Below, piece by piece: positions 91-32,320 of a stretch of 32,320 nt of DNA. The position numbers were made by a program, and so were the translations under genes. Within the stretch, counting starts at the first letter, position 1, and each line of letters opens with the position of its first letter. This stretch comes from Geosiphon pyriformis uo1. Its lineage: Eukaryota; Fungi; Glomeromycota. The stretch lies in the NCBI GenBank assembly GCA_016748015.1, contig JAAOMT010000379.1, forward strand, positions 30,194 through 62,513, in the 5' to 3' direction. The notes below the pieces were generated by a model. That model was not told the DNA's origin. It worked only from the letters and a program-made list of their open reading frames with translations, and made no database searches.

Positions 91-829
91 TGTTATGGGT
101 TGGAATAACAAGCTAATAGATAGCAAGGGAAAACAGAATTGTAGAGTAATAAAAAAAAATCAAAGAGAATTCAATTTTAAAGAACAAATTAAATGAGTAT
201 GAATTCAATGTATAAGATCAGTTTTATAAAATATCTCAGTCACTATACTTTTCAAAAGATAACCAGAGAATCTGAAAGTAGAAAGATAGTTTGTACTGTT
301 AACAAATGATTACACACTGGTATAATTCTATGTTTCATATTAGTGCTCTTAGAATTTAATATTAAGTATTAAATATACTTTTCAATCATGTTTTATTTAA
401 TAATCTTCAAATGCTATAATTATATGAGTCAGAAAAAGAGTAGATAAATACCAACAAGTAATCTTTTATCTTAAAATGTTCAAATACTTGAAAGTAAGGA
501 AAAAAAAATTAGTAAGAAGAGAAGAATTAAAATAAAGTTGTTATTTTATTTTATTTTTCTTTTTGATTCTTACATGCTTTTTTATAGCTAAGAGATTCAT
601 TGCTTATATAGCTATCAAAAGTGGTCAATGATCAGATCAACAACTAGGTCAATAATCAAATTGATGACTAGGTCAATAATCAGGTTATTGATCAGATTGA
701 TAATCAAATCAATGATCAGATTATTAATCAGGTTAATAATTACTATTTAAAAATAGGGTGGCTAATTATATGACATCAGTAGCTAATATATGTAATAACT
801 AATAAAAAATATGAGTTTTAATCATAACA
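91..829 (-). repeat. E1 3' LTR
   Basis: TGTTATG...CATAACA terminal inverted repeats; colinear with 7159-7800. Confidence 0.95.
622..740. repeat. ~12-bp tandem array (GGTCAATGATCA-like, ~10 units) in E1 LTR U3
   Basis: Visible units ggtcaatgatca, gatcaacaacta, ggtcaataatca; only ~2 units in the partner LTR (7690-7712). Confidence 0.85.
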
Positions 830-840
830 TTATTTTTTCC
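830..840 (-). other. E1 polypurine tract (degenerate)
   Basis: Minus-strand GGAAAAAATAA abuts the 3' LTR. Confidence 0.55.
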
Positions 841-1455
841 AAAGAGATTGAACTCCAGCAAAATCAAGCTATTTATAAAATAATTTATTTGAAGTGTTTT
901 ATCTAATTCAAAACTAACTAATTTGTTGAAGTCTTTTGTAGATAGAGTGTATAATACTTGAGGCAAAATGAGTTTTGTATCTAAGAGATCAAATCTTTGT
1001 ATTAGAGTTTTGGCTCTTTTAACAATAGTTAAAACTCTTGGGACATTCAACTGTATAATGTTCAAAATTTCTGTCTATATTTTTAAAGTTGTTTTCTTTA
1101 TAAGTTTTATATCCTTTATGATTTTTCTAAGGTAACCATAGAATTTTAATTGTCTTTCATATAACAAATTTTTGTCTATGGGTAAGATTTCTTGGATTGT
1201 TTTTCCAATTATGCTAAAAAGTGAGAATATAGCTGCTATTATACTTTCTAACAGATATTTATCCATTTTGCTACTAATTCTTTCTCTTTTGGTAGTGGTT
1301 TTCTTTGGTTTAATAAAAGTGTGTGTTCTACTGTTATTAGTTATGATGATTTGTTTTTCAATAATCAGAATAGCATTTGGATAGTTTTTGATTCAATACT
1401 CATAAAGAGTATAGAAAGTGTTTTGAATGTTTTGATCCAGAAAATAATTGTTCAT
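830..1455 (-). pseudogene. E1 ORF3, unknown ~205 aa protein downstream of integrase
   Basis: ATG at 1455. ORFs 1075-1266 and 799-1065 are in the same frame, interrupted by only two stops (TGA, TAG). Confidence 0.75.
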
Positions 1456-7158: not shown

Positions 7159-7800
7159 CATTATAAGTTGGAATAACAAGCTAATAGATAGCAAGGGAGA
7201 ACAGAATTGTAAAATGATAAAAAAAAATCAAAGAGAATTTAACTTCAAAGAGTGAATTGAATGAGTATGGATTTAATGTGTAAAATCAGTCTCATAAAAT
7301 ATCTCAGTCACTATACTTTTCAGAAAATAACCAGAGAATCTGAAAGTAGAAAAATAATTCATACTGTCAACAAATAATTACACACTGGTATAATTTTATG
7401 TCTTATGTTAATGCTTTTAGAATTCAATATTAGGTATTAGATGTATTCTTTAGTTATGTTTTATTCAATAATTTTCAAATGTTACAATTATATGAGTCAG
7501 AAAAAGAGTAGATAAATGTTAACAAGTAAGTTTTATTCCAAGATGTTCAGATACTTGAAAGTAAAAAAAGAGAAATTAGTAAGAAGAAAAAAATTAAGAT
7601 AAAATTGTTATTTTATTTTTTTTCTCTCTTTGATTTTTATATGCTTTTCTACAACTAAGAGATTCATTGCTTATATAGCTATCAAAAATAGTCAATAATT
7701 AGGTCAATAATTACTATCTAAAAATAAGGTAGCTAATTATATAACATTAGTGGCTAATATATGTAATAACTAATAAAAAATATGAGTTTTAATCATAACA
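7159..7800 (-). repeat. E1 5' LTR
   Basis: Colinear with 91-829 and ends CATAACA; 97 bp shorter, mostly from fewer 12-bp tandem units. Confidence 0.93.
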
Positions 7801-7831
7801 ATAATATATAATTGATAAATTGTTTTGATGT
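7801..7831 (-). pseudogene. E3 host fragment: 31 bp of ORF3 between E1 and E2
   Basis: IKTIYQLYI vs E2 ARTIY*LHI. Confidence 0.75.
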
Positions 7832-8607
7832 TGTTACAGATGATTATTTGGGGTCTCCAATCAAATAACAAACCCATAACTTAGTGCTCAAAAGCTGATT
7901 TAAGTGATAATATCTGAAGGCTGTTTGTATCTGAAGATTTTGTTTGTTGAATCCTTTGTATAATAAACAGAGATTTAATTGATTGTTTTATCCGTAGCTT
8001 TCCGAAACTGCAGTTTTGTCAATTTTTTTTTCAGTATGATGGCTGGTAATCTTCCTAGTAAGATATTCTCAATTCCAAGTGTCTATTCTTATTTCTGGGT
8101 TTTTTACCAGTGCTATATTCTGATATCAGTACTTCTGCACATGAAATCTTTTAATCAAGTTAATAAACAAAAGAAATAACAAAAGAAAATAAAATTAAAG
8201 AAAATAAAGAATAAGTCAAGACAATAATAGTTAGTATCTTGTCAATAGCTGTGATTAAGAGCTATTGTTCCAGTGTGGTTAAGTATCAATTACTATTAAC
8301 ATGAAATATTGATAGTGAAAAGTGAATTTGAGATATGAAATAATTATTTATTAATATTTGTGATGTGAAAAGTTGCTTAGATTAAATCTAAACTGAAAGG
8401 TCTGTCTTTTCTACTTCTAACACTACTATTATATATACATAATTGAGATTCCTTAATTTCTTAATTCTTTACTTCAGGAATTCTGGAATCTTACAATTCC
8501 TTGTATGAGAATTCTGAAATTTCTGAAATCACAATTCCTCTTGAGAGGAATCCTGAAATTCCATATTTACTATAGCTACTTCTGATTGGCTAATTTATAT
8601 ATTAATA
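7832..8607 (-). repeat. E2 3' LTR
   Basis: Starts TGTTACAGA and ends TAATA (decayed TAACA); colinear with 16910-17736. Confidence 0.92.
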
Positions 8608-8620
8608 TACTTCCTTTCTT
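8608..8620 (-). other. E2 polypurine tract
   Basis: Minus-strand AAGAAAGGAAGTA next to the LTR. Confidence 0.75.
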
Positions 8621-9289
8621 TTAATATTGAGTTCTGTTAAAATCTTCCAAATATCCTAATTCTAATTCTCTATCTTTGAGTATTTCTTGAACTTTTTTTT
8701 TGAAAATTACTTGAGTTATCTTTTTCTGTAATTCTTCAAATTAAGTGTTGGTTATTTTACCCATTTGGTTAACTGTAATGAAGTTTATTTCCGGATTAAG
8801 TAAAATTTGCAGTCTGTCTTGAAATCTTATATGTAGCTAATAGATGGTTCTTGCTTGTGTAATTAAATTGTTCTTTCCCACAAATTGTTCTAATTGTTGC
8901 AGTATTGTGGTGTTAAATAATCGTTTTGTTTTATCTATGTATAAGTTTTGAATATTCAAGTATCATTCCAAGTAGAAATAACAAAAGTTCTTTGGAAATT
9001 TATGTATCCATTATTTCCAAGTTTTTTTGGTTAACTCTTTATATGTAGTAATACTTGTTGGTTCTTCTATTGCTAATTTTATTTTCAGAACCATTTTATT
9101 GATAGTGTTTTTTGTTTTCTTTTCACTTTTGTATTTGGGTATCTTTCTGGTATTTCAGTATTAAATGGTTTGTTGATTGATAGTAATTTCTATATTCTTT
9201 TGTTGAATTAGTTGGAAGAGTTGTTGTGCTAGTAAGTAAATATTATCAGTGATTTCTATTTTTCTGAAGTCTTTCATTGTGTCTATCAT
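8621..9289 (-). pseudogene. E2 ORF3, unknown ~220 aa protein
   Basis: ATG lies ~30 bp after the pol stop and the frame ends at the PPT; one frameshift and several stops: MIDTMKDFRKIEITDNIYLLAQQLFQLI...FCYFYLE*YLNIQNLYIDK...ARTIY*LHIRFQD... Confidence 0.78.
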
Positions 9290-9320: not shown

Positions 9321-10700
9321 TTACATGTCTGGTTCAATGATTATAATTGGTTCCAGGTCTCGTGGAATCTCATTTGGTTGAACCAGTATTTTCTGTATTC
9401 CTAATTGTAAAATATTACTAGTAGATAATGATACTGTATGGTGATATGGTTTCAGTTGATTACCATATGCTGCTTTGGTTAAAATTTTGTTGTTCAACTT
9501 TAATTTATAAGCTCTATTTCTAAGAATTTTTTCTATGTAAAATGGTTTATCTCATTTGGGATCAAATTTTCTACTCTATTGTTTTTTTGCTTTAGTATAA
9601 TATAGAAGTACTTTGTCTCCAATCTTGAATTCAACTGGTTTATCTAATAGTCAGTTATTGTGTCTTTCTTTTTGTTTCTCTTGTGACTTTTGGATGTTAT
9701 CAGCTGTTTGTCACTGTTTGTTTTCTAGTGTTTCTATTAAGTTATATGTTTTTCTCAACAATGTTCTTTGGAAATTCTCTTCTGTTATTGGTTCTGTTGA
9801 ATATATTTGTACTTTTATTTCAACTGGTAATGTTGCTGTTCTATCATATACGAATTCAAATGGTGTTGCTTGTATAGTATCTTGTTTCATTGTCTGATAA
9901 ACAAATAATATTGATGGTATAAACAAATTTCATTCATCTTAATTTTCTTGGCTGATTTTGGCAATTGCTTCACACAATGTTCTATTGAATCTTTTAACTA
10001 ATCCATTTGTTTATGGATGATATGACAATGATAATGGTTTTTTAATTCCAAATTTTTGGCTTAATTCTGCTAATATTCTATTCACAAAGTAAGTTTCTTG
10101 ATCAGATAATAATTTTTTTAGACATCTATGTTGACAGATCAAATCTTGATAGATGAATTTGACAATAGATTCTGCATTTGCTCTTTGAATGGCTTTTGTT
10201 TCTGGTTATTTTGTAAGATAGTCTATGACTATTATGATATATCTGTTGTCTCTGCTGGTTATTGTTAATAGTCCTACTAAGTCAATTCCAATGCAATTAA
10301 ATGGTTGTTCCACTTTGATTGGTCTTAATGGCTTACTTGGTCTTGCTTCTCTTCTTTTCTGACAAGCATCACAATTCTGAACATATTAGATAATGTCTGG
10401 ATACATTGATGACCAATAGTATTTTTTTCTAGTTTTTTCTATGGTTGTTTCTTTATGAAAATATCCTGTTGTTGGATCTGAATGCATGTTGAACAATATT
10501 GTCTCTTTTTCTGGTTCTGTAATTACTCTGGTTGGTTGGTCTGAATTTCTTCTGTTTTTCTAGTAAAGTATATTTTGATAATTGATAAAATATTTTGATT
10601 ATTGTTTTATGTTGTTTTGTTCCTTTTGAGATAATTTCTTCTTGAACAATTGGGTATTTATATAATATTGGAGTTGTTAGTATTTTTGTATATTCATCTT
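9321..10700 (-). pseudogene. E2 integrase
   Basis: FNMHSDPTTGYF, CDACQ, IGIDLVGL, QTNGLVKRFNRTL, TPFEFVY, decayed KFDPKWDGPF (GPY/F) motif. Confidence 0.93.
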
Positions 10701-10734
10701 TTGTTATATTTTTGAGTTAAAATGTTTTTAGATT

Positions 10735-11160
10735 TGTCTCATTTACAACAATCCATTGGCATTTCTATTGTTTTTTTCTTTTTTATAATGTACTGTAAAT
10801 GTATATGGTGATAGTGCTATTTTCTATTTTGCATAACAATCATCTCCAAATTCTTGCTTTTAAATTAAAGTCAATCCTTTGTGGTCAGTATAAACATCAA
10901 ACTTTTGGCTCAAGTATTCTTTTCATTTGGTAACAGCCCAATAGATAGCTAATTGTTCTAGTGCTAGAGTTCCATAATTTTTTTCAGCTGGACTTAAGTT
11001 TCTACTGGCATAAATTACTGAATGTTCTCTTCCATCTGGTCTTTTCTGTAATAGTACTGCTCCCAATGCTTGGCCTAATGCATTGATGGTAATAATGAAT
11101 GGTTTGCTGTGATCTAAATACATCAACACTAGAGCTTGAATAAGTTTTTTTCTTAATGTT
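10735..11160 (-). pseudogene. E2 RNase H
   Basis: PFIITINALGQALGAVLLQ...VIYASRNLSPAEKNYGTLALEQLAIYWAV. Confidence 0.93.
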
Positions 11161-12554: not shown

Positions 12555-12955
12555 TCTACCTGTTGATCCAAATCTTTGTATTCCTCTAGCTGTAATTTTT
12601 AACTTTTCCCTGTTTCCCACTGATACTAATTGAGCTATTTTCATTAGAGGTAGGAATATTGCTTGTGCTATCTTTTTATTTGGATCTATAGTATATGTCT
12701 TTTCCAAGTCATTTTGTAGCATAGCAATGATATTTCCTATGTATCCTGCATCAATTATTTTTCTTCTGATGTTAATTCCCTTTTTGGCTAAACTACTCCT
12801 AGATGCTAACTGTATTATTGTTATTTCTAGAATTTCCAGTGCTATTTTCAGATCAATGCAGGTGTGCAAATGTGGTTTCAATTTGATGGCATCTTTTTTT
12901 GAATATCTTAGATTAAATTTGGCATCAGTATTGTGTGCACATTCTGGCATAATAC
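12555..12955 (-). pseudogene. dut: E2 trimeric-type dUTPase domain in pol, between PR and RT
   Basis: All five motifs recognisable: DAKFNL (from DAGFDL), SRSSLA, IIDAGYIGNI, KIAQAI, RGIQRFGSTG. Confidence 0.93.
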
Positions 12956-13214
12956 TTTCATTGTTATCACTGAACCATTTCAGTTTCTGCTTCTTGGTGA
13001 GGTCAGGAAGCACGATATATTGTTCAGGATTTAAATTGGAGTTTGAATCATTGTAATTTTTATTGCCATTTTGAACAGAGCTGGAACTGTTATTTTTATC
13101 ATTATTGTTGTTGGAATTTGAATTGAGATTAAACAATAATTCCAATTCTGATTTGCAGCTGCTAATTGGTTCTTCTTCCTCTGGAATTGTGTAGATTATG
13201 TGTGATGGTAAATT

Positions 13215-13850
13215 GTAAATGAGATCACACTCATTACAATATTGAAAGTCATATAGAATCAAACAGTGGTCACATAGTCAGGTGTTGATTTCTTCTAAGC
13301 ATTGCTCCTGTTCTTTTTTTGTAGGTGTTAGCTCTTGGTAGTGTTTGTGAAATTGTTCTGGATCCAAGAGATTTATGACTGGTTCTGGGTCTTAGTTAAG
13401 TTTTATAGGTTTAGGTGGATTGTTTTTTATTATTTTTATTTCTTCTGATGACACTTTTTCGATTTTGGCAAGAGCCATTTGCCAAATTTTGTCATTATCA
13501 TGTGGACATCTGTCTAAACATTTGACTGCTCATTTCCAAGCAACATTTATGGGTGTTCTTTTTCTTACTCAGTCACTTATGAGAATTGTGTATTGACATG
13601 ATTCTTTGCATGTTTTTTCTCTCTTAGGAATGTCATTCCACATCCCTTTGTCAAGAAGAGTTTTTCCACAAGTAAGACAAAACTTATTATCCTATTTTTC
13701 AACTTGTTTTGGTCTTCCAAAGCATTTAATAAGGCATGAGTGGCAATAGAACTTAGTTGCTGTCTGGTATTCCTTGTTATCATCTAGCATGTGCTCATTG
13801 ATGACAATTTCTTGCTGCAATCGACACATACCAGTTTTGGGTGACAATAG
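13215..13850 (-). other. E2 Cys-rich putative multi-zinc-binding region
   Basis: CVDC-x7-C, CHSC, CLTC, CKESC, CPHD, and LCDHC...YCNEC. Confidence 0.7.
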
Positions 13851-14239
13851 TTAGATGGTTGTGGTAGAGTATATGTGTATGGAGTATAAGTAGTAGTGGT
13901 AGTTAATATTAGTTCTTCTTTTTTCCCCTTTCCTTTTACTTTTGTATTTTTTTCTCACTTCCAATTTATTAATTCTTTTTGGTTGTTGTTGGTTTCTCAG
14001 ACTTGGTCAAAATTTCAGATAAGTTCTTCTTTTTGTTTCCCTTTTCTATTGTCATTCTAGAAGGATATTGGCAGTAACTTGTTGTGATCACTTTCAGTCC
14101 ATAATACTTGATAGGCTTTTCAGATAAGTTTCTTTTTTTCTTCCTTGAACTCAATAAGTAGGGCTAACATGTTAGTGGTCTTGAAATAGCTACACATAGT
14201 TGGTACACATGTGTGTTAACTGTTTAGGCTTAATTGAAG

Positions 14240-16909: not shown

Positions 16910-17736
16910 TGTTACAGATAATTATTTGGGGTCTCTAATCAAATAACAAACCTGTAACTTAGTGCTCAAAAGCTGATTTGAGTGGTAATATTTGAAGACT
17001 GTTTGTATCTGAAGGTTTTGTTTGTTGAGTCCTTTGTATAATGAACAGAGATTTAATTGATTGTTTTATCTATAGCTTTCTGAAACCACAGTTTTGTCAA
17101 TTTTTTTTTCAGCGTGATGGCTGGTAATCTTTTTGGTAAAATATTCTTAATTCTGAGTGTCTACTTTTATTCCTGGGTTTTTTACCAGTACTATATCCTG
17201 ACATCAGTATCTTTGTGCATAAATCTTTTTAATCAAGTTAATAAACAAAAGAAATAACAAAAAAAAATAAAAGAAAAGAAAAGAAAAAATAAGCCAAGGC
17301 AATAATAGTTAGTATCTTGTCAATGGCTGTAATCAAGAGCTATTGTTTCAGTATGATTAAGTATTAATTACTAACAATATAAAATGTTAATAGTAAAGAG
17401 TAGATTTGAGATATAGAATAATTATTTAGTGATATTTGTGATGTGAAAGATTGCTTAGATTAAATCTAAACTGGGAGGTCTGTCTTTTTTACTTCTAATG
17501 CTACTGCTATATATACATAATTAAAATTCCTTAATTCCTCAATTTTTCACACCAGAAATTTTGGAATTCCTGGAATTCTGCAATTTTTTTTGAGAAGAAT
17601 TCTGGAATTCTGGAATCCTGTAATTTTTTGTATGAGAATCCTAAAATTCCTGAAATTCTGCAATTTTTCTTGAGAGAAATCTTGGAATTCCAAATTTACT
17701 ACAGCTACTTCTGATTGGCTAATTTATATACTAATA
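16910..17736 (-). repeat. E2 5' LTR
   Basis: Colinear with 7832-8607, with extra GGAATTC-rich units. Confidence 0.92.
17507..17718 (-). promoter_or_regulatory. E2 U3 promoter: CCAAT box, GGAATTC(C/T) repeat array, TATA box
   Basis: Minus-strand AGCCAATCAG (~17711-17720), repeats at 17520-17695, then TATATATAG (17507-17515). Confidence 0.6.
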
Positions 17737-19055
17737 TACTTTCTATATTCTATAAATAATAATATATAGTATAGAATTTGTTTTTTTTTAATAAAGTTTT
17801 TAATTTGTTGTACTATTTCTTGATTGAACATTTTTTTAGATTTGTTAATATATAATTTCTAAATATTCAGCTTTTGTTTTAATTGATAGTAGCAATATAC
17901 TATTAAAAGTTGTTTTATCTATAATTTTCAATTTTTCTTAATTAATTTTTCAATTGGAATAGTAATTAGTATTTTTCTAAAAGTGGTTTTTACTTTTTCT
18001 ATAATTTTATTTGATTAGTGTTTTGTTTAGTTTTGTGGTTGCTAATATAAAATAATCTTTGCTTTTTCTTTTTTTTTTTGTGTTTTATAACAAATTATTT
18101 GAAATTAATAATTATTTCTATGTCTAATTATTGTTAATTTATAACTTAAAATAATTGTTGTGTTATTGTGTAGATATGATTTGAGATTTTTATTTTTTAT
18201 TGTTGCTTTTATTATATATACTGTGTTTTTATATACTATTAACTTGATTTACTTTTCTGTATTTTTTTTAATAATTATAATTAATTCTAAATCTTGTAAA
18301 ATTTTATCTGCTTTGACTAGTATTTTTTGTACTCTCAGTTGTAGAATATTATTGATAGATAATACTACTATATTGTAATATAATTTCAGTCAATTATTAT
18401 GTACTGCTTTGATTAAAATTTTGTATCTTAATTTATAAGTTCCATTTTCTAGAATTTTTTTGATGTAAAATAGATTATTTTATTTGGAGTTAAACTTTTT
18501 ATTCTATTGTTTTTTTGTTTTGGTATAATGTAAAAATACTTTGTTTTCAATTCTAAATTTGATCAGTTTATTTGGTAATTGGTTGTTATGTCATTTTTTT
18601 TGTTTTTATGATTTTTGTATATTATTAACTGTTTTTCATTTTTTGTTTTCTAGAGTTTCATTAAGTTATATGGTTTTTTTAGCAATGTTTCTTAAATATT
18701 GGCTTCTGTTATTGGTTTTATTAAATATGTATTAATATCTATCTCAACTGATAATATTGCTGTTCTTTTATATGCTAGTTTAAATAATATTATTTATATA
18801 ATATTTTATTTTATTATTCAATAAGCAAATAATACTGATAATATAAACAAAATTATATTTATTTTGGTTTTTTTGGCTGATTTTAGCTATTGTTTTGTAT
18901 AATGTTTTGTTAAATCTTTTAACTAAGTTATTTGTTTGTAAATAATATAAAAATAATAGCAGTTTTTTAATTCCAAATCTTTGACTTAATTTTGTTAATG
19001 TTTTGTTTACAAAATAAGTTTCTTAATCTGATAACAATTTTTTTAAACATTTATG
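17737..19055 (-). mobile_element. E3 host fragment: integrase core/C-terminus and N-terminal part of ORF3 (family B-like, heavily decayed)
   Basis: Colinear with E2 ~8870-10130; IYTITQQLF and LNI*KLYINK match E2 ORF3. Confidence 0.88.
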
Positions 19056-19502: not shown

Positions 19503-20287
19503 TGTAAAAAAAAAATACAAGAAAAGATAGAAAAAACAGATCATAAAAAAATAAACCAATAAAAGAATTGTAATTAATAAATAAGCACATTTTTAAGAAT
19601 GAACATATTTCTAAAAAATAGTATAAAAAAAATAAAAATGTGTAAAATCTTATATAATATGAATTATGTATATATAGCAAAAGTATTAGAAGCAAAAAAA
19701 ACAGAACAGTAATAACTAATTAATAGTTAATAAATATTTTTCTTTTTAAAAAATAGTTTTCTATAATTTATAGTAGAATTATATTTATATCAATAAAACT
19801 ATCTATTATTATTCAATTTATATTATCATTGCTTAATTAAAAAATATTAATTACTTTCATATTATCAACAACTTATGTTAATAAAATTTAATACTTAACT
19901 ATACTAAACCAATAACTTTTGATTATGGCTATTAACAAGATACTAATTTTTTATTTTTTTTATTTGGTTTTGTTATTTACTAATTGATTAAAAAATTAAG
20001 CATTGAGTAATTAATATCAAAAATAGTCTGGTAAAAAACTCATAAAACAAAATAAAAAACTTAAGAATAGCTTATTAAAAAAACATAACTGTTAGATTAA
20101 ACAAGTTATTATGTTAAAAACAGAAATTAAGAAAAAACTATTACTTAAATTTTTGTTTATTATACAAAAGACTTAACCAAAACCTTTAGATACCAAAACT
20201 TTTAAAAATTATCATTAAAAATAGCTATTAAGCATTAAGTTACAGATTTGTTATTTGTTTTAACACTCCAAATAATTATTTGTAATA
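19503..20287 (+). repeat. E4 5' LTR
   Basis: TGT...TGTAATA; 19660-20287 is homologous to the reverse complement of the E2 LTR; length (785 bp) similar to the E2 LTRs. Confidence 0.8.
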
Positions 20288-20289
20288 TT

Positions 20290-20306
20290 TGGTGCTTTTT
20301 ATAAAG
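20290..20306 (+). other. E4 primer binding site
   Basis: TGGTGCTTTTTATAAAG, a transition-only variant of the E2 PBS. Confidence 0.85.
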
Positions 20307-20309
20307 TAT

Positions 20310-21980
20310 AATCTAACAAAAAACCAGTATTAACATTTACTATTCAGAATAGTGACAAAATTAGAAATAATAAAGACAAATCACTTAAGATTTACAAAGA
20401 TTTTATTTCAATATTATCAAACTCATCTTAAACTGACAAGTAATTATTGGCCAGCAGAATTAGTTTTCAACTTTTATATTAATAAAAAAATTATATTTTA
20501 CTTAAAAGACCAAAAAAATTCAAAAACTACTTTCAAAAATTTCTATAATAAATTACTTCAAAACACTATACTTCTATAAAATTATTTGTTTATTACACTA
20601 ATTATAGAAATAAATCAAGAAATTGAGAACACACTTAACTGAATTTCTTATTATTTTTGCAAACAAAAAAAAAGAAAAGTTATAAATCTTAGCAGAAATA
20701 CCAAAAAAAATACAACTGCTTACCTAAAAGAAACCAAGAGTTATTTTACTTATCTATATATTATTATAGGCCCAAAAGCACTATTCAGATAATATTAACA
20801 ATTATATCTACATCAAAAATATCATTAGCATAAATATTATTTTAAAGTAATTAAAAAAAAACTAAACTATTAAAAACCTATAACAATTTTTTCAAAAAAT
20901 TTAAATTACAACTAACAACTTTATTAGAACTCTAAACATTGTCACTTTAATCAAATTTCGAATTTATTAGTAATTGGACAAAAACTGAATCAAAAGAAAA
21001 AGAAAACAACAATCAAGAAAACAATAATTAAAACCCAATTTCAAATAATCTAGAAGTTCAAACTCAGCAAAACCCAAAAAATTTAAACTCTACTTCTATT
21101 GTCAACAACAATTTACTTTCAGTTATCCAAATTAATTCTTTTATTGTATTAATAGGCATTCTTATCAACCACTAATCAACTTATCTTTAAAACAAATAGC
21201 ATATACACTAAATTGTTAAACTTAAAAAATTTACCAATAAAAAAAATAACACCTAAACATAATTAAATAATATGGTAAAAGCTATTTCAGTCAATAAATG
21301 AGATAACACTAAAGCTATTCAAATAATTTTCTACTTTTTACAAGATATTACTAACTTGTGGTATTAGAGTCTAATCAACAAATCATAAACTTTTAACACA
21401 TTCCAAGTTGTGTTTCTACAATATTTTAGTAATTACAACAGTATTAATTGGTTATTAACTGGTTTTACTACAATTAAGCAAAATAATAACAAAGTAATTA
21501 TTACTTATTTAAGACACTTTTACAAAAATTTATGCCAAATTCAAGCAGTTAATGCTAACTATTTTACAATATTACAGATTTTGAATCAATTTATTTATAG
21601 ATTATATAGTAATTTGTTATAACAAATATGTTTATTATATTTAAACATACTTTAAGGCACAATTATTTATACCAAAAATTTCAAGTTAGCTAAACTTAAA
21701 GCCAATTACACCCAAACTGTGAATCTAGCAATAAACAAATTATTTGAGTTAGATACCAAATTGAAACAATTTGGAAAAACAATCAACCAGAAAATTAAGG
21801 AATACTTAACTTATAATTAGACAATTTATTAGTTTTTTCAACATCATAATAATCTAGAAAACTATAATTGAAGTTTTAGTTAGTTATATTCATCATTATT
21901 AAATCAATTATGACAACAAAAAACATGTATCTGTTATTACTATAGTAAACAAAAATACTTAAAAATAGATTATAGAACAA
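20310..21980 (+). pseudogene. E4 gag, through the zinc knuckle
   Basis: Colinear with E2 gag; decayed knuckle CYYYSKQKYLKIDY at ~21932-21973. Confidence 0.85.
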
Positions 21981-21981
21981 A

Positions 21982-22840
21982 ATAACCAATTAATTAACAT
22001 GAAATTATTTTTCGAATTCTTAGCATTAATTAAAATATATTATTATTATTTTAATTATCACTTATTAGTTAATTAAATTATCAAATATTATTATTCAATT
22101 AATAATCCGATTTATATCATAGAAATTAAGATGATTAAATTATACAATACCCTGAACCATTTAATATTCAAAAATTCGCCAAAATTAGTAAAAATTGGCT
22201 AAAATAATTAATAGTTTGTAGAAATAATTTATAGTTTGCCAAAATGTATTTTTAGTTTGCCAAAATTATAGCAAAGAGAAAAGTGCAAGTTCAAAAACTA
22301 GTACTATAGCAAGTTGTATAAAAGAAAAGCTTTTTTTTCAAGAAAATATATTTTACTTTAGATATCTTAATTAAAACAAATTATTTTTTATACATCTTTA
22401 TGAAATCAAATAAAAATTAAATANNNNNNNNNNNNNNNNNNNNNNNNNNNNNNNNNNNNNNNNNNNNNNNNNNNNNNNNNNNNNNNNNNNNNNNNNNNNN
22501 NNNNNNNNNNNNNNNNNNNNNNNNNNNNNNNNNNNNNNNNNNNNNNNNNNNNNNNNNNNNNNNNNNNNNNNNNNNNNNNNNNNNNNNNNNNNNNNNNNNN
22601 NNNNNNNNNNNNNNNNNNNNNNNNNNNNNNNNNNNNNNNNNNNNNNNNNNNNNNNNNNNNNNNNNNNNNNNNNNNNNNNNNNNNNNNNNNNNNNNNNNNN
22701 NNNNNNNNNNNNNNNNNNNNNNNNAATAATTTGAAGATAAATTCAGTTATCAAAGGTCCAATTACTTTCAAAAAACGTGAATTCTTAATCAATAGACATT
22801 AACAACATTCAAGAAAAGAGACCAAAAACTTTCAATAATA
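21982..22840 (+). repeat. E5 5' LTR (first ~17 bp missing; contains an N gap)
   Basis: Homologous to 31727-32162 and 31133-31246. Confidence 0.85.
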
Positions 22841-25265: not shown

Positions 25266-25489
25266 ACAATATACCCAAGTACTTGCTATTTATAGTATTT
25301 TTAACAAACAAGCAGAAAAGGCCTCAGTATTCGAATTTGAAGAGAAAAAAAAATACCAATCATTAAAATTTTTATGGCTTTTGGATTACTATTTAATTGG
25401 GCTGAAGAAATAGAACAAAAATTTTTTAAAGAAACTAAAGGATGAAATATTGTTTGTTATTCTATACCAGAATTATGAAAACAACTACC

Positions 25490-26110
25490 CTATATATTAC
25501 TCAAATGCAAAAATTGCAACAAAAAACTTTCATCAATAGGAGCATGCATATTCCCAAAAAAAAATATGAAATTTGCACCTACTACTTTTGCAAAGTCTGT
25601 CATAAAAAATGATTTAGATATCCCAAATAAAGTGGAAAATAGGACAATACTTCTTGTCTTATATGTAAAAAAATGCTATCAGAAAAATGCAACTGAATTG
25701 AAATTGCAATGAGAGGAGAAGTATGTGACCAAACTTGTCAATACACTCTATTCATTGCAGAAAAAGTAAAAAAAAACCTTATTTGATGTTGTTTACAATA
25801 GTGCTCTCAACAAACTTTATTATTACCCACATAATGCTAAGATAATTTATGAATTAGTCATGATTTTAATTAATAGAAAAACCCAAAAAAATGTTTACTA
25901 AATGAAAAAAGCTAAATACATTGAGTATATAATAAAATTAGCTAGACTTAACTATAAAAATAAAGTAAAAACATATCACCAAATTGCAAGTCATACTTAT
26001 TTGACTCAAAAAGCTCAAATTCAATGATTGGAGCAAATAAACATTTAATTATGTGAAGAATACATCATATCTTGTAATAACAAATAGTGTTTAGAATGTT
26101 ATGCTCTTAG
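25490..26110 (+). other. E5 Cys-rich region
   Basis: CKNCNKKLSSIGAC, CKVC, CLIC, CDQTCQY, LCEE...CLEC. Confidence 0.7.
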
Positions 26111-26249
26111 CACCTTTTTGCTCAGCAAAAATAACCAGAAGGAAATTGAGTTTGGAGAATCAAAGCACAAAGAAAAAATTGTAACAACTCCAATCTATCT
26201 CACTAAAAATTAACCAGCTCTACAACTTAAATATTTCGACAATAATAAT

Positions 26250-26655
26250 CAAAAAATTAAGTCTGAGAAAGCTTATAAAATTGATGCAAGATATAATTTA
26301 CAATATTCTGGCAAAAATACTTTGGTCTTTTAACCAAAATTCCTTACTAAAATCAATCTAAAAATTGCTCTTGAAATTCCACTAAGAATAATAGTACAAA
26401 TTGCTTCCTGATTATTATTGGCAAGTAAAAAAATCAATGTTAGAGGAGAAGTTATAGATACAAAATATACAGAAGACATCATCATAATGCTACAAAATAA
26501 AACTAAGAAACTATTTAGAATAAAGCATGTTAAAAAATTTGCACAAGCTATTTATTTATTTTTAATTAACATTTTAGGATTACAATTACTTAATAACAGA
26601 AAACAATTAGAAAAAAATAAAAAAAGAACTTAAGATTTTGGTTTAACTAAACAAT
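26250..26655 (+). pseudogene. dut: E5 dUTPase
   Basis: IDARYNL, QIAS*LLLASKKINVRGEVIDTKYTEDI, KFAQAI, RT*DFGLT; colinear with the E2 dUTPase. Confidence 0.85.
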
Positions 26656-27109: not shown

Positions 27110-28495
27110 TTAACAACAAAGACAATTAAAACAGTTAATAGCTAAATTTGCTAATATATTTGTAAAAAACAACAATGATTTAGGAAAAACAGATATTATT
27201 CAACACCAAATCCATACAGAAAATGCTCTACCAAAATGGCAACAAGCTTACTAAATTCTATTTTCTAACCACCAATTTATTAGAAAAGAGATTCAAAGAA
27301 TACTTAATAATTGATTGATTCAACCATCAAGAAATCCATGAATCTCATCAATAGTTTTTGTCAAAAAAAACGAAAAAATCAGATTTTGTGTTGATTATTA
27401 ACAATTGAATAATGTTATAATTAGAAATACATACCCACTTTCAAGAATTAATGACATGTTAGATGTTTTAAAAAAAGCCAAGTTTTTTTCAACATTAGAC
27501 TTAGAAAGTAGATACTGACAAGTTGAAATAAATCTTAAAGATTGTCTTAAAACAGCATTTACAACTCAAGAAGAAAACTATAAGTTCAATATTATACTAT
27601 TCAGACTTTGTAATACACCAGCAACATTTTAGTGACTCATAGATGTTGTTTATAAAAGATTCCTATAGCAATTAGTAGTTGTCTATTTTAATAATACTAA
27701 TGTGTATTTTTTAAGCTTTAAAGCTTATTTGATTTACCTGTAAAAAGTTTTTTAACAATTATAGAAAGCAAAATTGAAATTGAACATTGAAAAATATTAC
27801 TTTGAAAAAACAAATTTAATCTTTCTTGATCATATTGTCAGTAAAGATAGAGTATCACCCAATCCAGAAACAATTAATGCTATAAAAAACTTTAAAATTT
27901 CTTAAAATACCACAGAACTAAAAAGATTTGTCAGTTTAGCTTCTTACTATTGAAAATTTATCAAAAAATTTTCAGAAATTGCCAAACTTCTTAATCATTT
28001 TACCAATAAAAATATTAAATACCAATGGACTTTAGCACAACAAACTGCATTTAATACTCTTAAAGAAAAACTCACAACAACATTAATATTTGCTTATCTA
28101 GACTTTAATAAATGATTCCAGTTAATCACTGATGCTTTACACATAGCTTTTAGTACTATTTTATTACAATTAGATAACAATGACAATAAATAAGTAATTG
28201 TTTATGCAGTAGAATACTCAAACCAACAAAACTCAAATATGGTTCAACAGAATTAAAAACTGCTACAGTTATTTGGGCTCTCAAACATTTTCAATAGTAC
28301 CTGAAGAATAGAAAAAAATTTGACATTATAATCAACAATATTGGTCTCAAATGGCTTAATAAAAAGAAATCTGAACAAAGTGCCAAAAAATCTCAATGGA
28401 ATAATTTTCTAGCAAACTACAAATATATTGTACATTACAAACTTAGAAAACTACATACTAATATTGATAATCTTTCAAGAATAAGACAGAATTAA
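27110..28495 (+). pseudogene. E5 reverse transcriptase and RNase H
   Basis: IRFCVDY*QLN, FSTLDL, FVSLASYY, FQLITDA. Confidence 0.92.
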
Positions 28496-28554
28496 TACCA
28501 ACAGCAATTCTATCACAACTTACTAATTTATTAATAAATAATAATCAAACAACA

Positions 28555-29935
28555 ATGAACTCCAAAACTACAATATTAAAAACTATTTAAAAACTCTTAC
28601 CATGCTAAAAAATTGATTTCCAAGTAAAAAATACTAATTACAACATTAAACAAAACAATATTTTATTTACCACAACAAAATTTATTATTAAAATTGCAGA
28701 AATTTATTCAATCTATTCAGATTAGTTTAACAAAACAAAAAAGAAACAATTTTATACAACATGCAAACAAATTCTTCATCAGAATATCTAAAAAAAAATA
28801 ACACAATACAAAAAACACTTGAATATTATTTTTGGCCCCAGATGCAAAAAGACATTCGACAGTATATAAAATTATGTAATAGTTGTTAAAAAAGAAGAGA
28901 AATTCGACTCACTAAATCTTTAAATTCAATTAAAGTTAAACAATTTTTTGACAAGGTTGGTATTAATTTAATCAAACCACTATCTATTACAAACCAAAGA
29001 AACTGTTATATTATAGTTGTAAAAAATTATCTCACTAAATGGCCTAAAACCAGAGCCATTCAAAAAGCAGATAACAAATGAGTAGCAAATTTTATTTATG
29101 AAGACATTATTTATAGACATAAATATTTAATTAAACTTTTATCAAACCAAGAAACTTATTTTGTAAACAACTTAATACAAAATATTTGTGAACAATTTAA
29201 TATTAAAAAATCTTTATCATTACTCTATTACTTACAAACAAATATATTTGTAGAATATTTTAACAGAACATTGTATAAATTATAGCCAAAATTTCAACTA
29301 ATTTTGAGCAAAAATAGAATATTTTTATTCTATTAATATTATTAATATACAGAATACTAAAACAAAATACAACAAAGCATATACTATTTGATTTGACTTA
29401 TAGAAAAATAGCAATACTACCAATTAATTTATAGTAAAAACATACCTAGTACAATCAATTACTGAAAAAAACTTCTAAAAAACACTTTAATAAAAAGCTT
29501 ACATCCTGTTTAGTACTTTAGAAGAAAAACAATGAATAACAGCAACTTATATTAAATATTCTTATGCTTAATAAAAAGAATGGCATAACAACACATTGCC
29601 ATCAGTCACCAATAAATTTAAAATTGGAAACAAAGAGTTTTTACACAAAACTAAGGCTAAAAAACAATGGAATGAGAAATTTGAATATAAATAGGATAAA
29701 TTATTTTATATTCATAAAATTCTAAGCAATAAATCATACAAATTAAGACTTGATAACAAAGTTTTAGCAAAAGTTGCACAGGGAGATTAATTAAAACACT
29801 ATTAATTCAAAAATCATTCTGAACTACTAATTTTACAAATTGGTACACATTCTCCTTTAATTAATCCTGAAGATATTTCCTGAAAGTTAAAACCAATAAT
29901 TGTAGTAGAACAACAACCAAACTTTAATACTTAAT
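28555..29935 (+). pseudogene. E5 integrase
   Basis: YYFWPQM, YLTKWPKTRAI, FNRTL, and a GPY/F-like tail. Confidence 0.9.
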
Positions 29936-30099: not shown

Positions 30100-30525
30100 A
30101 TTATAATCATTCTCTAAAACATTTAACAATTATCTTAAAAATTAATGTTAACTTTAAAAACACTTCCTGACTTATTTATAACAATTAATAAAAGTCAAAT
30201 TAATTATACCCAAAAAGAAACTATAATACCAGTAGTAAATAATTTTCAAAATTATTACTCTTATAAAAAAAACACAAAAAGTTATTCTGAAAGTTATTTA
30301 CCAGAACTTTTAAAACAAGCTCTCAAAAAAAATTTTTTAATTGTTTCTATTGACATTTTACCAAATGCCACAATCCAACAAAAACTTTTACTATTTCTCA
30401 ATGAACAAAACAATAATTATATTCTTATTTATAAATATTTTTATATTGAAAGAACACTTTATGAACAAAAACTAGAATTTGAAACAACAAATCTCACTTT
30501 TGAAGTTATATAAAAACAAATTCAC
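30100..30525 (+). pseudogene. E5 ORF3 (partial, runs into a gap)
   Basis: 122-aa ORF at 30145-30513; ITINKSQINY and YFYIERTL match E2 ITINQQTI*Y and YFYLE*YL. Confidence 0.75.
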
Positions 30526-30567
30526 NNNNNNNNNNNNNNNNNNNNNNNNNNNNNNNNNNNNNNNNNN

Positions 30568-31246
30568 GAAATGTATCTTTAGTTTGCCAAAATTATAGCA
30601 AAGAGAAAAGTACAAGTTCAAAAACTAGTACTACAGCAAGTTGTATAAAAGAAAAACTTCTCTCTTCAAGAAAATATATCTTACTTTAGATATTTTAATT
30701 AAAACAAATTATTTTTTATATATTCTTACAAAATCAAATAAAAATTAAATATTTAAAAACCAAATTCTTAATTATTATACTTGAAATTCACAAAAACTAA
30801 CTAATGTTTTGAAATTGATTAGCTACTAATTTCAATAATCTGTTAGTAACTTCAGACTTAAATAGAAAACTTTTTTCTTGACAATATTTCATTTTTTTTA
30901 TTTTTTTTTTATTTTTTTTTACTTTTCTTATCATAATTTTTAAGGTAGTCTACAGATAAAATTTCTGTAAAAGAGTTAACTTTTACAGCAAAGTAATTAC
31001 ACATTTTTAGTGGGCTTCCAGATGAGCAATTTTTGGAAAAGAGTTGATGTTTACTACATCATAACTACATAAAATAACTGGTATGGAATTGGTCATTCTA
31101 CTTATAAGCCCAGCAGTTCAAATTATTGGAGATAATTTAAAGATAAATTCAGTTATCAGAGGTCTAACTACTTTCAGAAAACATGAATTCACAGTTAACA
31201 GGCATTAAAACCATTCAAAAAAAGAGACCAAAAATCTTTGATAACA
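30568..31246 (+). repeat. E5 3' LTR (start lost in gap)
   Basis: Ends TTTGATAACA; homologous to the 5' LTR. Confidence 0.88.
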
Positions 31247-31627: not shown

Positions 31628-31696
31628 TGTTATTAGCAAAAATGATATTTTTTATAATAATAATTTANNNNNNNNNNNNNNNNNNNNCTCAGTCTT

Positions 31697-32320
31697 GAGA
31701 AGAAGATTATGTTACCAGTAAAATTTTAACTATTAATTAGTATAAAATTATCTTTTTAATTCCTAGTATTAATTAGTATATATTATTTCAATTATCACTT
31801 ATTAGTTAATTAAATTATCAAATATTATCATTCAATTAATAATCCAATTTGTACTATAGAAAGTAAGATAATTAAATTACATAATACTTTAAACCATTTA
31901 ATATTCAAAAATTCGTCGAAATTTGTAGAAATTGGCTGAAATAATTAATAGTTTGTAGAAATAACTTGTAATTTACCGAAATGTATTTTTAGTTTGCTAA
32001 AATTATAGCAAAGAGAAAAGTACAAGTTCAAAAACTAGTACTACAGCAAGTTGTATAAAAGAAAAACTTCTCTCTTCAAGAAAATATATCTTACTTTAGA
32101 TATTTTAATTAAAACAAATTATCTTTTATACATTCTTACAAAATCAAATAAAAATTAAATATTTAAAAACCAAATTCTTAATTATTATACTTGAAATTTA
32201 CAAAAACTAACTAATGTTTTGAAATTAATTAGCTACTAATTTCAATAATCTGTTAGTAACTTCAGACTTAAATAGAAAACTTTTTTCTTGACAATATTTC
32301 ATTTTTTTTATTTTTTTTTT
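31697..32320 (+). repeat. PPT plus family-C LTR copy (runs off the window)
   Basis: GAGAAGAAGA then TGTTACC at 31710; nearly identical to 30568-30910 over the overlap. Confidence 0.88.

Follow-up and report, generated by a model that had tools for sequence, protein, structure and literature searches.

Ty3/Gypsy retrotransposons of the fungus Geosiphon pyriformis carry a separate gene, ORF3, behind the integrase, and its product is predicted to be a soluble and mostly helical protein. We analyzed one window (the whole 32,320-nucleotide stretch of DNA presented above) and find that the ORF3s of its elements E2, E1, and E5 are real genes, as evidenced by their stop counts, the lengths of their relatives, and the same gene order in other copies. 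Sequence comparison divides them into two families of no name (E2/E3/E5 and E1) rather than one. The integrase-ORF3 arrangement exists beyond the decayed Geosiphon copies, in a metagenomic Gypsy element that we call L001. For the role of ORF3 we tentatively favor, at a probability of about 0.4, a factor that binds the LTR of its own element and acts as an activator or anti-silencing protein in a probably methylating host.

ORF3 and element architecture

The window has a GC content of 18-36% in its gap-free parts and contains decayed elements of the Ty3/Gypsy group: protease, RT, RNase H, and integrase lie in this order between LTR pairs, with a primer-binding site and a polypurine tract. Pfam recovers the four domains in Gypsy order from E1 and E2 when stops are read as X, and partially from E5. 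As originally predicted, E2 has a separate sense ORF after the integrase that ends at the polypurine tract (Table 1). This ORF has the orientation of gag-pol, begins at an ATG of its own, in a different frame from the integrase and 31 nt past its stop, and has its stop codon at the purine tract. Its frame contains 6 internal stops versus 14-23 in the other five frames and 19 expected (binomial P ~3e-4). Q, R, or W predominates among 21 aligned relatives at five of these stop positions, and Q, K, or T at the sixth. One DNA run contained 4355 records matching E2 ORF3.

E1 ORF3 has 2 stops in its frame versus 13-26 in other frames (P ~7e-7). It had been placed at 830-1455 and is indeed a real gene, but its end lies at 799, beyond the purine tract, which it overruns by ~10 codons into the LTR. 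The E1 and E2 genes have 218 and 222 codons, respectively, and the E2 gene is not open in this copy. E5 ORF3 is present after its integrase, as claimed, and is left incomplete by a gap in the assembly. In E3, again as predicted, ORF3 is broken between two frames; by eye it resembles the proteins P0260 and P0322. Gene models that fuse an integrase tail to ORF3 show that further copies of each of the three families are arranged alike.

Table 1. Coordinates of ORF3 genes and associated features in the window
Feature	Position	Strand	Description
E2 ORF3	8621..9289	-	222 codons + stop; 6 internal stops from decay
E2 integrase	9321..10697	-	Zinc finger, core, SH3/GPF tail; no chromodomain match
E2 polypurine tract	8610..8622	-	Directly at ORF3 stop; from sequence
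E2 3' LTR	7831..8609	-	5' edge approximate
E2 dUTPase	12558..12956	-	Between protease and RT; Pfam PF00692, E 1.5e-12
LTR common to E2 (5') and E3 (3')	16910..~17740-17752	-	From LTR alignment
E3 ORF3	17769..18190 (approx.)	-	Frameshifted over two frames, heavily decayed; apparent sister lineage of E2 ORF3
E1 ORF3	799..1455	-	218 codons, 2 stops; ends inside 3' LTR
E5 ORF3, N-terminal two thirds	30103..30525	+	Start approximate; cut by N gap at 30526
C-terminal codons of E5-type ORF3	31688..31729	+	Span purine tract and LTR start
40-nt tandem repeat, 3.3 copies	17557..17691		U3 of E2/E3 LTR
20-nt tandem repeat	22201..22266		E5-type LTR
12/24-nt tandem repeats	623..740		U3 of E1 3' LTR

The integrase is apparently a separate gene as well. 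E1, E2, E5, and L001 all have a stop at the end of RNase H and an ATG of the integrase's own a few codons later (junctions at 10697-10745 and ~2800-2880 on the minus strand and 28490-28560 on the plus strand of the window, and at 772-801 of L001). Because the integrase, too, appears to start after a stop, these elements probably can express downstream genes. We considered an integrase C-terminal domain or chromodomain as the identity of ORF3 and rejected it: a stop and a spacer precede ORF3 in E1, E2, E5, and L001, and Pfam returned no chromo or SH3 match on ORF3.

Several other features of the window deserve mention. A dUTPase is located between protease and RT in E2 and E5 (~26270-26615, plus strand), with no match in E1, and a long cysteine-rich insert between protease and dUTPase (E2, ~13100-14200, minus strand; E5, 25400-26200, plus strand) has no Pfam match at E ≤ 0.01. 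Retrotransposon dUTPases are reported, in a passage of PMC5408684 and as of 2017, only from basidiomycetes besides the rotifer elements described there. E3, E2, and E1 lie head to tail on one strand, with a gap of ~30 nt between E2 and E1 (7800-7831), and no target-site duplication of E1 is evident by eye. Two LTR pieces at the end of E5 (30568-30910 and 31978-32320) are 98% identical around N gaps and probably represent an assembly duplication. A truncated and heavily decayed copy of the E2 family (LTR plus gag, 66% identical) occupies 19656-21969 on the plus strand.

Two ORF3 families and their relatives

The E2 and E5 ORF3 families align over 187 columns at ~22% identity (hhalign 93%, E 2.9e-7), and their profile scores have medians of 10-20 bits versus <0 for reversed sequences, which indicates true cross-family homology of E2/E3 ORF3 with E5 ORF3. 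The original prediction had rested on motifs shared across families with dissimilar LTRs. However, the LTR at 16910-17752, which sits between E3 ORF3 and E2 gag and is followed by a primer-binding-site-like TGGTGC at ~16908, is 82-85% identical to the E2 3' LTR, and the DNA from integrase to ORF3 is 74% identical between E2 and E3. By these alignments, E2 and E3 are sister lineages with one LTR rather than families with unrelated LTRs, and the motifs they share are therefore not cross-family evidence; three of the five motifs quoted (two from E2/E3 and one from E1) carry no cross-family weight. Despite the common LTR family, the ORF3 lineages of E2 and E3 are only ~41-43% identical (with P0260 standing in for E3).

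E1 ORF3 had been joined to the same family through a weak RAKTL..LSTKDFNKL motif, a kinship for which we found no homology by hhalign, shuffling, or profile search. Four hhalign comparisons with E2 and E5 ORF3, using a shallow E1 profile, gave 0.1-0.2%; 35 of 80 shuffles did as well in a global alignment that gave 84% for the positive control; and a wide ORF3 profile run over the window matched E2, E3, and E5 but not E1. By all of these tests E1 ORF3 appears to be a separate family. By eye it has a similar length and hints of likeness at both ends, so that a remote kinship may exist. A GAGCTC-A(A/G)T-CT-like element is found just before the purine tract in E1, the E5-type, and L001 (820-850 on the minus strand and 31688-31716 of the window, and 3093-3123 of L001), where the ORF3 frame translates it as ELNL or ELSL. 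This element is the sole hint joining E1 ORF3 to the others and may reflect a constraint at the DNA level.

All named relatives of the E2, E1, and E5 ORF3s are Geosiphon gene models, many of them full-length. Searches identified 56 relatives among 219 candidates for E2, 40 among 337 for E5, and 122 among 1540 for E1. Lengths are well kept: exactly 218 aa in 20 of the 120 E1 relatives listed, and 221 aa (17/40) or 239 aa (9/40) in those of E5. A profile of the E2 and E5 families matched 112 proteins among 1.84 billion, and 23 of the 103 new matches are <50% identical to the six reference ORF3s. Ten matches were looked up, of which eight come from Geosiphon and two are metagenomic (P0263 and P0270); searches of viral and of prokaryotic contigs yielded no relatives. 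The lineage-wide distribution that had been proposed is borne out across at least seven divergent Gypsy lineages, with 15-43% identity between lineages, one intact member outside Geosiphon, and a position behind the integrase wherever the context is visible, but E1 does not detectably belong to this family.

The intact metagenomic member, P0270 (230 aa), occupies the same slot in L001, where RT-RNase H and a stop are followed by the integrase, itself interrupted by one stop, and then, after 316 nt of spacer, by the 230-codon ORF3, which runs into purine tract and LTR. E2 and L001 are 51% identical in integrase and 24% in ORF3, so that ORF3, as judged by these identities, diverges faster than integrase. 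In the E5/L001 group an acidic C-terminal tail ("EEEIML") is conserved; its codons are those of the purine tract and the first bases of the LTR, and it is no sign of protein function.

That a third ORF can follow pol, and that it is not necessarily env, is established according to passages of three papers (PMC5718144, PMC7264820, and PMC5408684). ORF3 qualifies as an aORF-3S, being an ORF on its own, in sense orientation, located between the integrase and the 3' LTR, and recurrent in many copies. It shares position, orientation, and retention in most copies with the aORF-3S/ORF3 genes of plants and bdelloid rotifers, as described in parts of PMC7264820 and PMC5408684, and the rotifer ORF3s, at 210-230 aa in the latter, are of similar size. 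Unlike the plant and rotifer genes as characterized in those parts, the present ORF3 has no membrane segments and no GDSL or DEDDy match, resides in a fungal host, and belongs to a different protein family. The earlier statement that fungal Ty3/Gypsy elements encode only gag and pol was too strong, as Boty of Botrytis has an antisense extra ORF (cited in a passage of PMC7264820). Our literature search, which covered work other than the Geosiphon genome papers and supplements, found no description of this ORF3 family, and PMC11952901, which reports the LTR expansion in Geosiphon, mentions no third ORF in its portions on Gypsy, LTR, and open reading frames.

Predicted fold and remote likenesses

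AlphaFold, given an alignment of 28 rows, predicts a confident and mostly helical ORF3 (pLDDT 80.8, rising to ~90 over residues 81-200; pTM 0.65); an earlier model from an E2-only alignment had reached pLDDT 45 and returned nothing from Foldseek. The model comprises a helix (7-20), a beta-hairpin (25-38), a loose and basic linker, a second helix (54-66), a compact helical core (82-182), and, at the C-terminus, a long helix (185-220). Within the core (~80-200), a G-K-x-N turn precedes an R-[LI]-[YH]-x-x-F helix, and residues conserved across lineages include P99, Y102, Y104, L111, K143, N145, A152, R155, L156, F160, L167, N178, F188, and I195. Foldseek returned no PDB or viral match at E ≤ 0.001, and the best VIA hits (Z up to 5.2) were to long helices or designed bundles; these searches used the whole model rather than the core alone, and the absence of a match is not proof of a new fold. 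The rows returned by the whole-model searches, in which the long C-terminal helix weighed most, include no helix-turn-helix fold.

By a simple Kyte-Doolittle hydropathy scan, none of nine ORF3 proteins has a membrane segment or a signal peptide (highest 19-residue hydropathy 0.27-1.33), all nine lack a furin-type R-x-[KR]-R site, and their 0-3 cysteines are not conserved. An Env fusion glycoprotein, which would have a signal peptide, a C-terminal anchor, a furin site, and conserved cysteines, was rejected on this basis. The original prediction had likewise judged that ORF3 does not look like a fusion Env; our Pfam and viral fold searches, together with the stop and spacer, give no match to a known Env or an integrase C-terminal domain. 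The two undecayed metagenomic ORF3s are acidic (pI 5.4 and 5.9), whereas the Geosiphon copies are basic, which may be due in part to mutational decay.

One of the two best leads is Pfam DUF1016_N (PF17761), which falls on the ORF3 core in three of eight proteins (E 0.015-0.092), with a best score of 15.8 bits that is under the Pfam cut-off of 32.8. Two of the 28 members match in each of two ORF3 alignments. Comparison by hhalign with 27 collected DUF1016_N domains gave 62 nearly gap-free columns at 11.8% probability, a score reached by 6 of 60 block shuffles. In a search with an ORF3 core profile, DUF1016_N domains took the top six places (best 18.7 bits, versus controls of 5.1 bits for 195 other tiles and 6.4 bits for 27 reversed sequences), and conversely a DUF1016_N profile scored a median of 10.1 bits on 37 E5-family proteins versus 0.8 bits on their reversals, these rank tests being inflated because the scored sequences are related. 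The latter profile showed no lift for 23 E2-family and 40 E1-family proteins. Remote homology of ORF3 to the N-terminal domain of DUF1016/YhcG stands at about even odds. ORF3 resembles DUF1016/YhcG in the 62-column stretch, in a Y-x-Y/W-x-I-G-x-x-[LI] motif, and in the G-K turn that leads into the last helix, but differs in lacking a nuclease domain and in having an extra N-terminal helix-hairpin and the long C-terminal helix. Part of PMC1189080 describes DUF1016_N as a helical N-terminal domain that accompanies a predicted DNA endonuclease. The domain may itself bind DNA.

The other best lead is a pair of Mucoromycota clusters of no name, which Atlas, queried with residues 78-205, ranked first (0.95 with 176 shared features, and 0.94), followed by a closterovirus coat-protein cluster (0.93 with 151 shared features, below the 170 of same-family Atlas matches) and DUF6192 (0.91). 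The whole protein P0212 retrieved prokaryotic clusters of no name (0.93, with a recognition value under the threshold of the tool) and the closterovirus cluster again, at 0.89. Sequence searches of Pfam, PHROGs, NCBIfam, and PDB with ORF3 produced weak rows only, of which Importin-5 (E 0.0035, then 0.089) and FtsQ were judged to be chance. The phage family phrog_23683 matches the core stretch (best E 8e-5); a phage protein picked as its guessed representative gave no alignment to ORF3, and a genome check of this lead found one weak, stop-broken match in 101 genomes. DUF3102 is, we presume, a further possible lead, and a motif like that of ORF3 presumably occurs in many hypothetical proteins of mycorrhizal fungi.

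Possible roles of ORF3

Distinct tandem repeats occur near the start of U3 in all four LTR families (E1, E2/E3, E5, and L001, the last with 8/20-nt repeats). The window has a CpG observed/expected ratio of 0.08, with CpA/TpG at 1.23, a pattern of decay that would fit CpG methylation and not CpA-type RIP, and the host probably methylates its transposons. The tandem repeats that VANC proteins target vary from one transposon to its relatives (PMC5735166, in part). We favor binding of ORF3 to its own LTR because of this VANC-like pattern, the fast divergence of ORF3, the family-specific U3 repeats, and the CpG depletion, with the DUF1016_N likeness as a lead to DNA binding. Among the functions first suggested, DNA binding and anti-silencing find weak circumstantial support here, and movement finds none. 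ORF3 would be translated from its own ATG, via a subgenomic RNA or reinitiation, as the integrase seems to be; the protein would enter the nucleus, bind the family-specific U3 repeats, and activate or unsilence its own element family, and its fast divergence would reflect shifting target specificity. The likeness to VANC of Arabidopsis VANDAL elements (a fast-evolving element-encoded factor, family-specific tandem repeats, a methylating host) thus extends to the proposed way of working, but VANDALs are plant DNA transposons and we see no homology of VANC to ORF3.

Several observations count against own-LTR binding. Tandem repeats in U3 are commonplace, being found in LTRs that lack any third gene; E2 and E3 have one LTR family, yet their ORF3s have diverged to the extent given above; the undecayed metagenomic ORF3s are acidic; the DUF1016_N link is below threshold; and our searches gave no significant sequence or structure match of ORF3 to any DNA-binding protein. 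A more specific scenario is possible but doubtful: that a multi-cistronic Gypsy clade of Glomeromycotina (gag-pol, separate integrase, ORF3) encodes a sequence-specific protein that counteracts silencing or acts in trans as an activator, contains a helical domain distantly related to bacterial DUF1016_N, and co-evolves with the U3 repeats, and that this has helped LTRs to fill ~41% of the Geosiphon genome (41.2% in LTR sequence according to a passage of PMC11952901). If true, ORF3 would represent, in a fungal retrotransposon, the equivalent of VANC or retroviral trans-activators. A conserved accessory protein encoded by the elements is a direct candidate for explaining their spread despite silencing.

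ORF3 could alternatively coat, export, or package genomic RNA as an RNA-binding or particle-associated helper, like CERV of Cer1 (a reported precedent, PMC10309623) or retroviral Rev. The closterovirus coat-protein cluster in both Atlas searches and the apparent need of these elements to express several downstream cistrons are in keeping with such a helper, but the number of shared features stays below the same-family level and neither Foldseek nor VIA returned a coat or nucleocapsid protein, and we consider it unlikely, if still plausible. A tether that replaces the chromodomain and steers new copies beside old ones would explain why the integrases have no chromodomain match, why E3, E2, and E1 are stacked so closely, and why several gene models run from an ORF3 on into the gag of the next element. 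Such stacking can, however, come from tandem reverse transcription, recombination, or selection, and nothing connects ORF3 with integrase, which makes a tether a distinctly unlikely role.

An Env-like or movement protein, serving spread between cells or nuclei, is improbable: ORF3 resembles retroviral and errantiviral Env in its position behind pol and its overlap with purine tract and LTR, and the host group has coenocytic hyphae, but the sequence hallmarks of Env listed above are negative in all nine proteins and no viral fold matches. Possibly related domains in Mucoromycota proteins of no name and the origin of the "EEEIML" tail in purine tract and LTR start might suggest that ORF3 was captured from the host or arose as a by-product, and does nothing for the element. 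We regard this as very improbable, given that lineages at 15-43% identity have retained both the frame and its length, that ORF3 follows the integrase wherever context is visible, and that the core is predicted to fold confidently. The remaining probability falls to some other role of ORF3. More than 200 "hypothetical" Geosiphon gene models are explained here as transposon ORF3s, and P0270 provides an intact member with its own LTR at hand.
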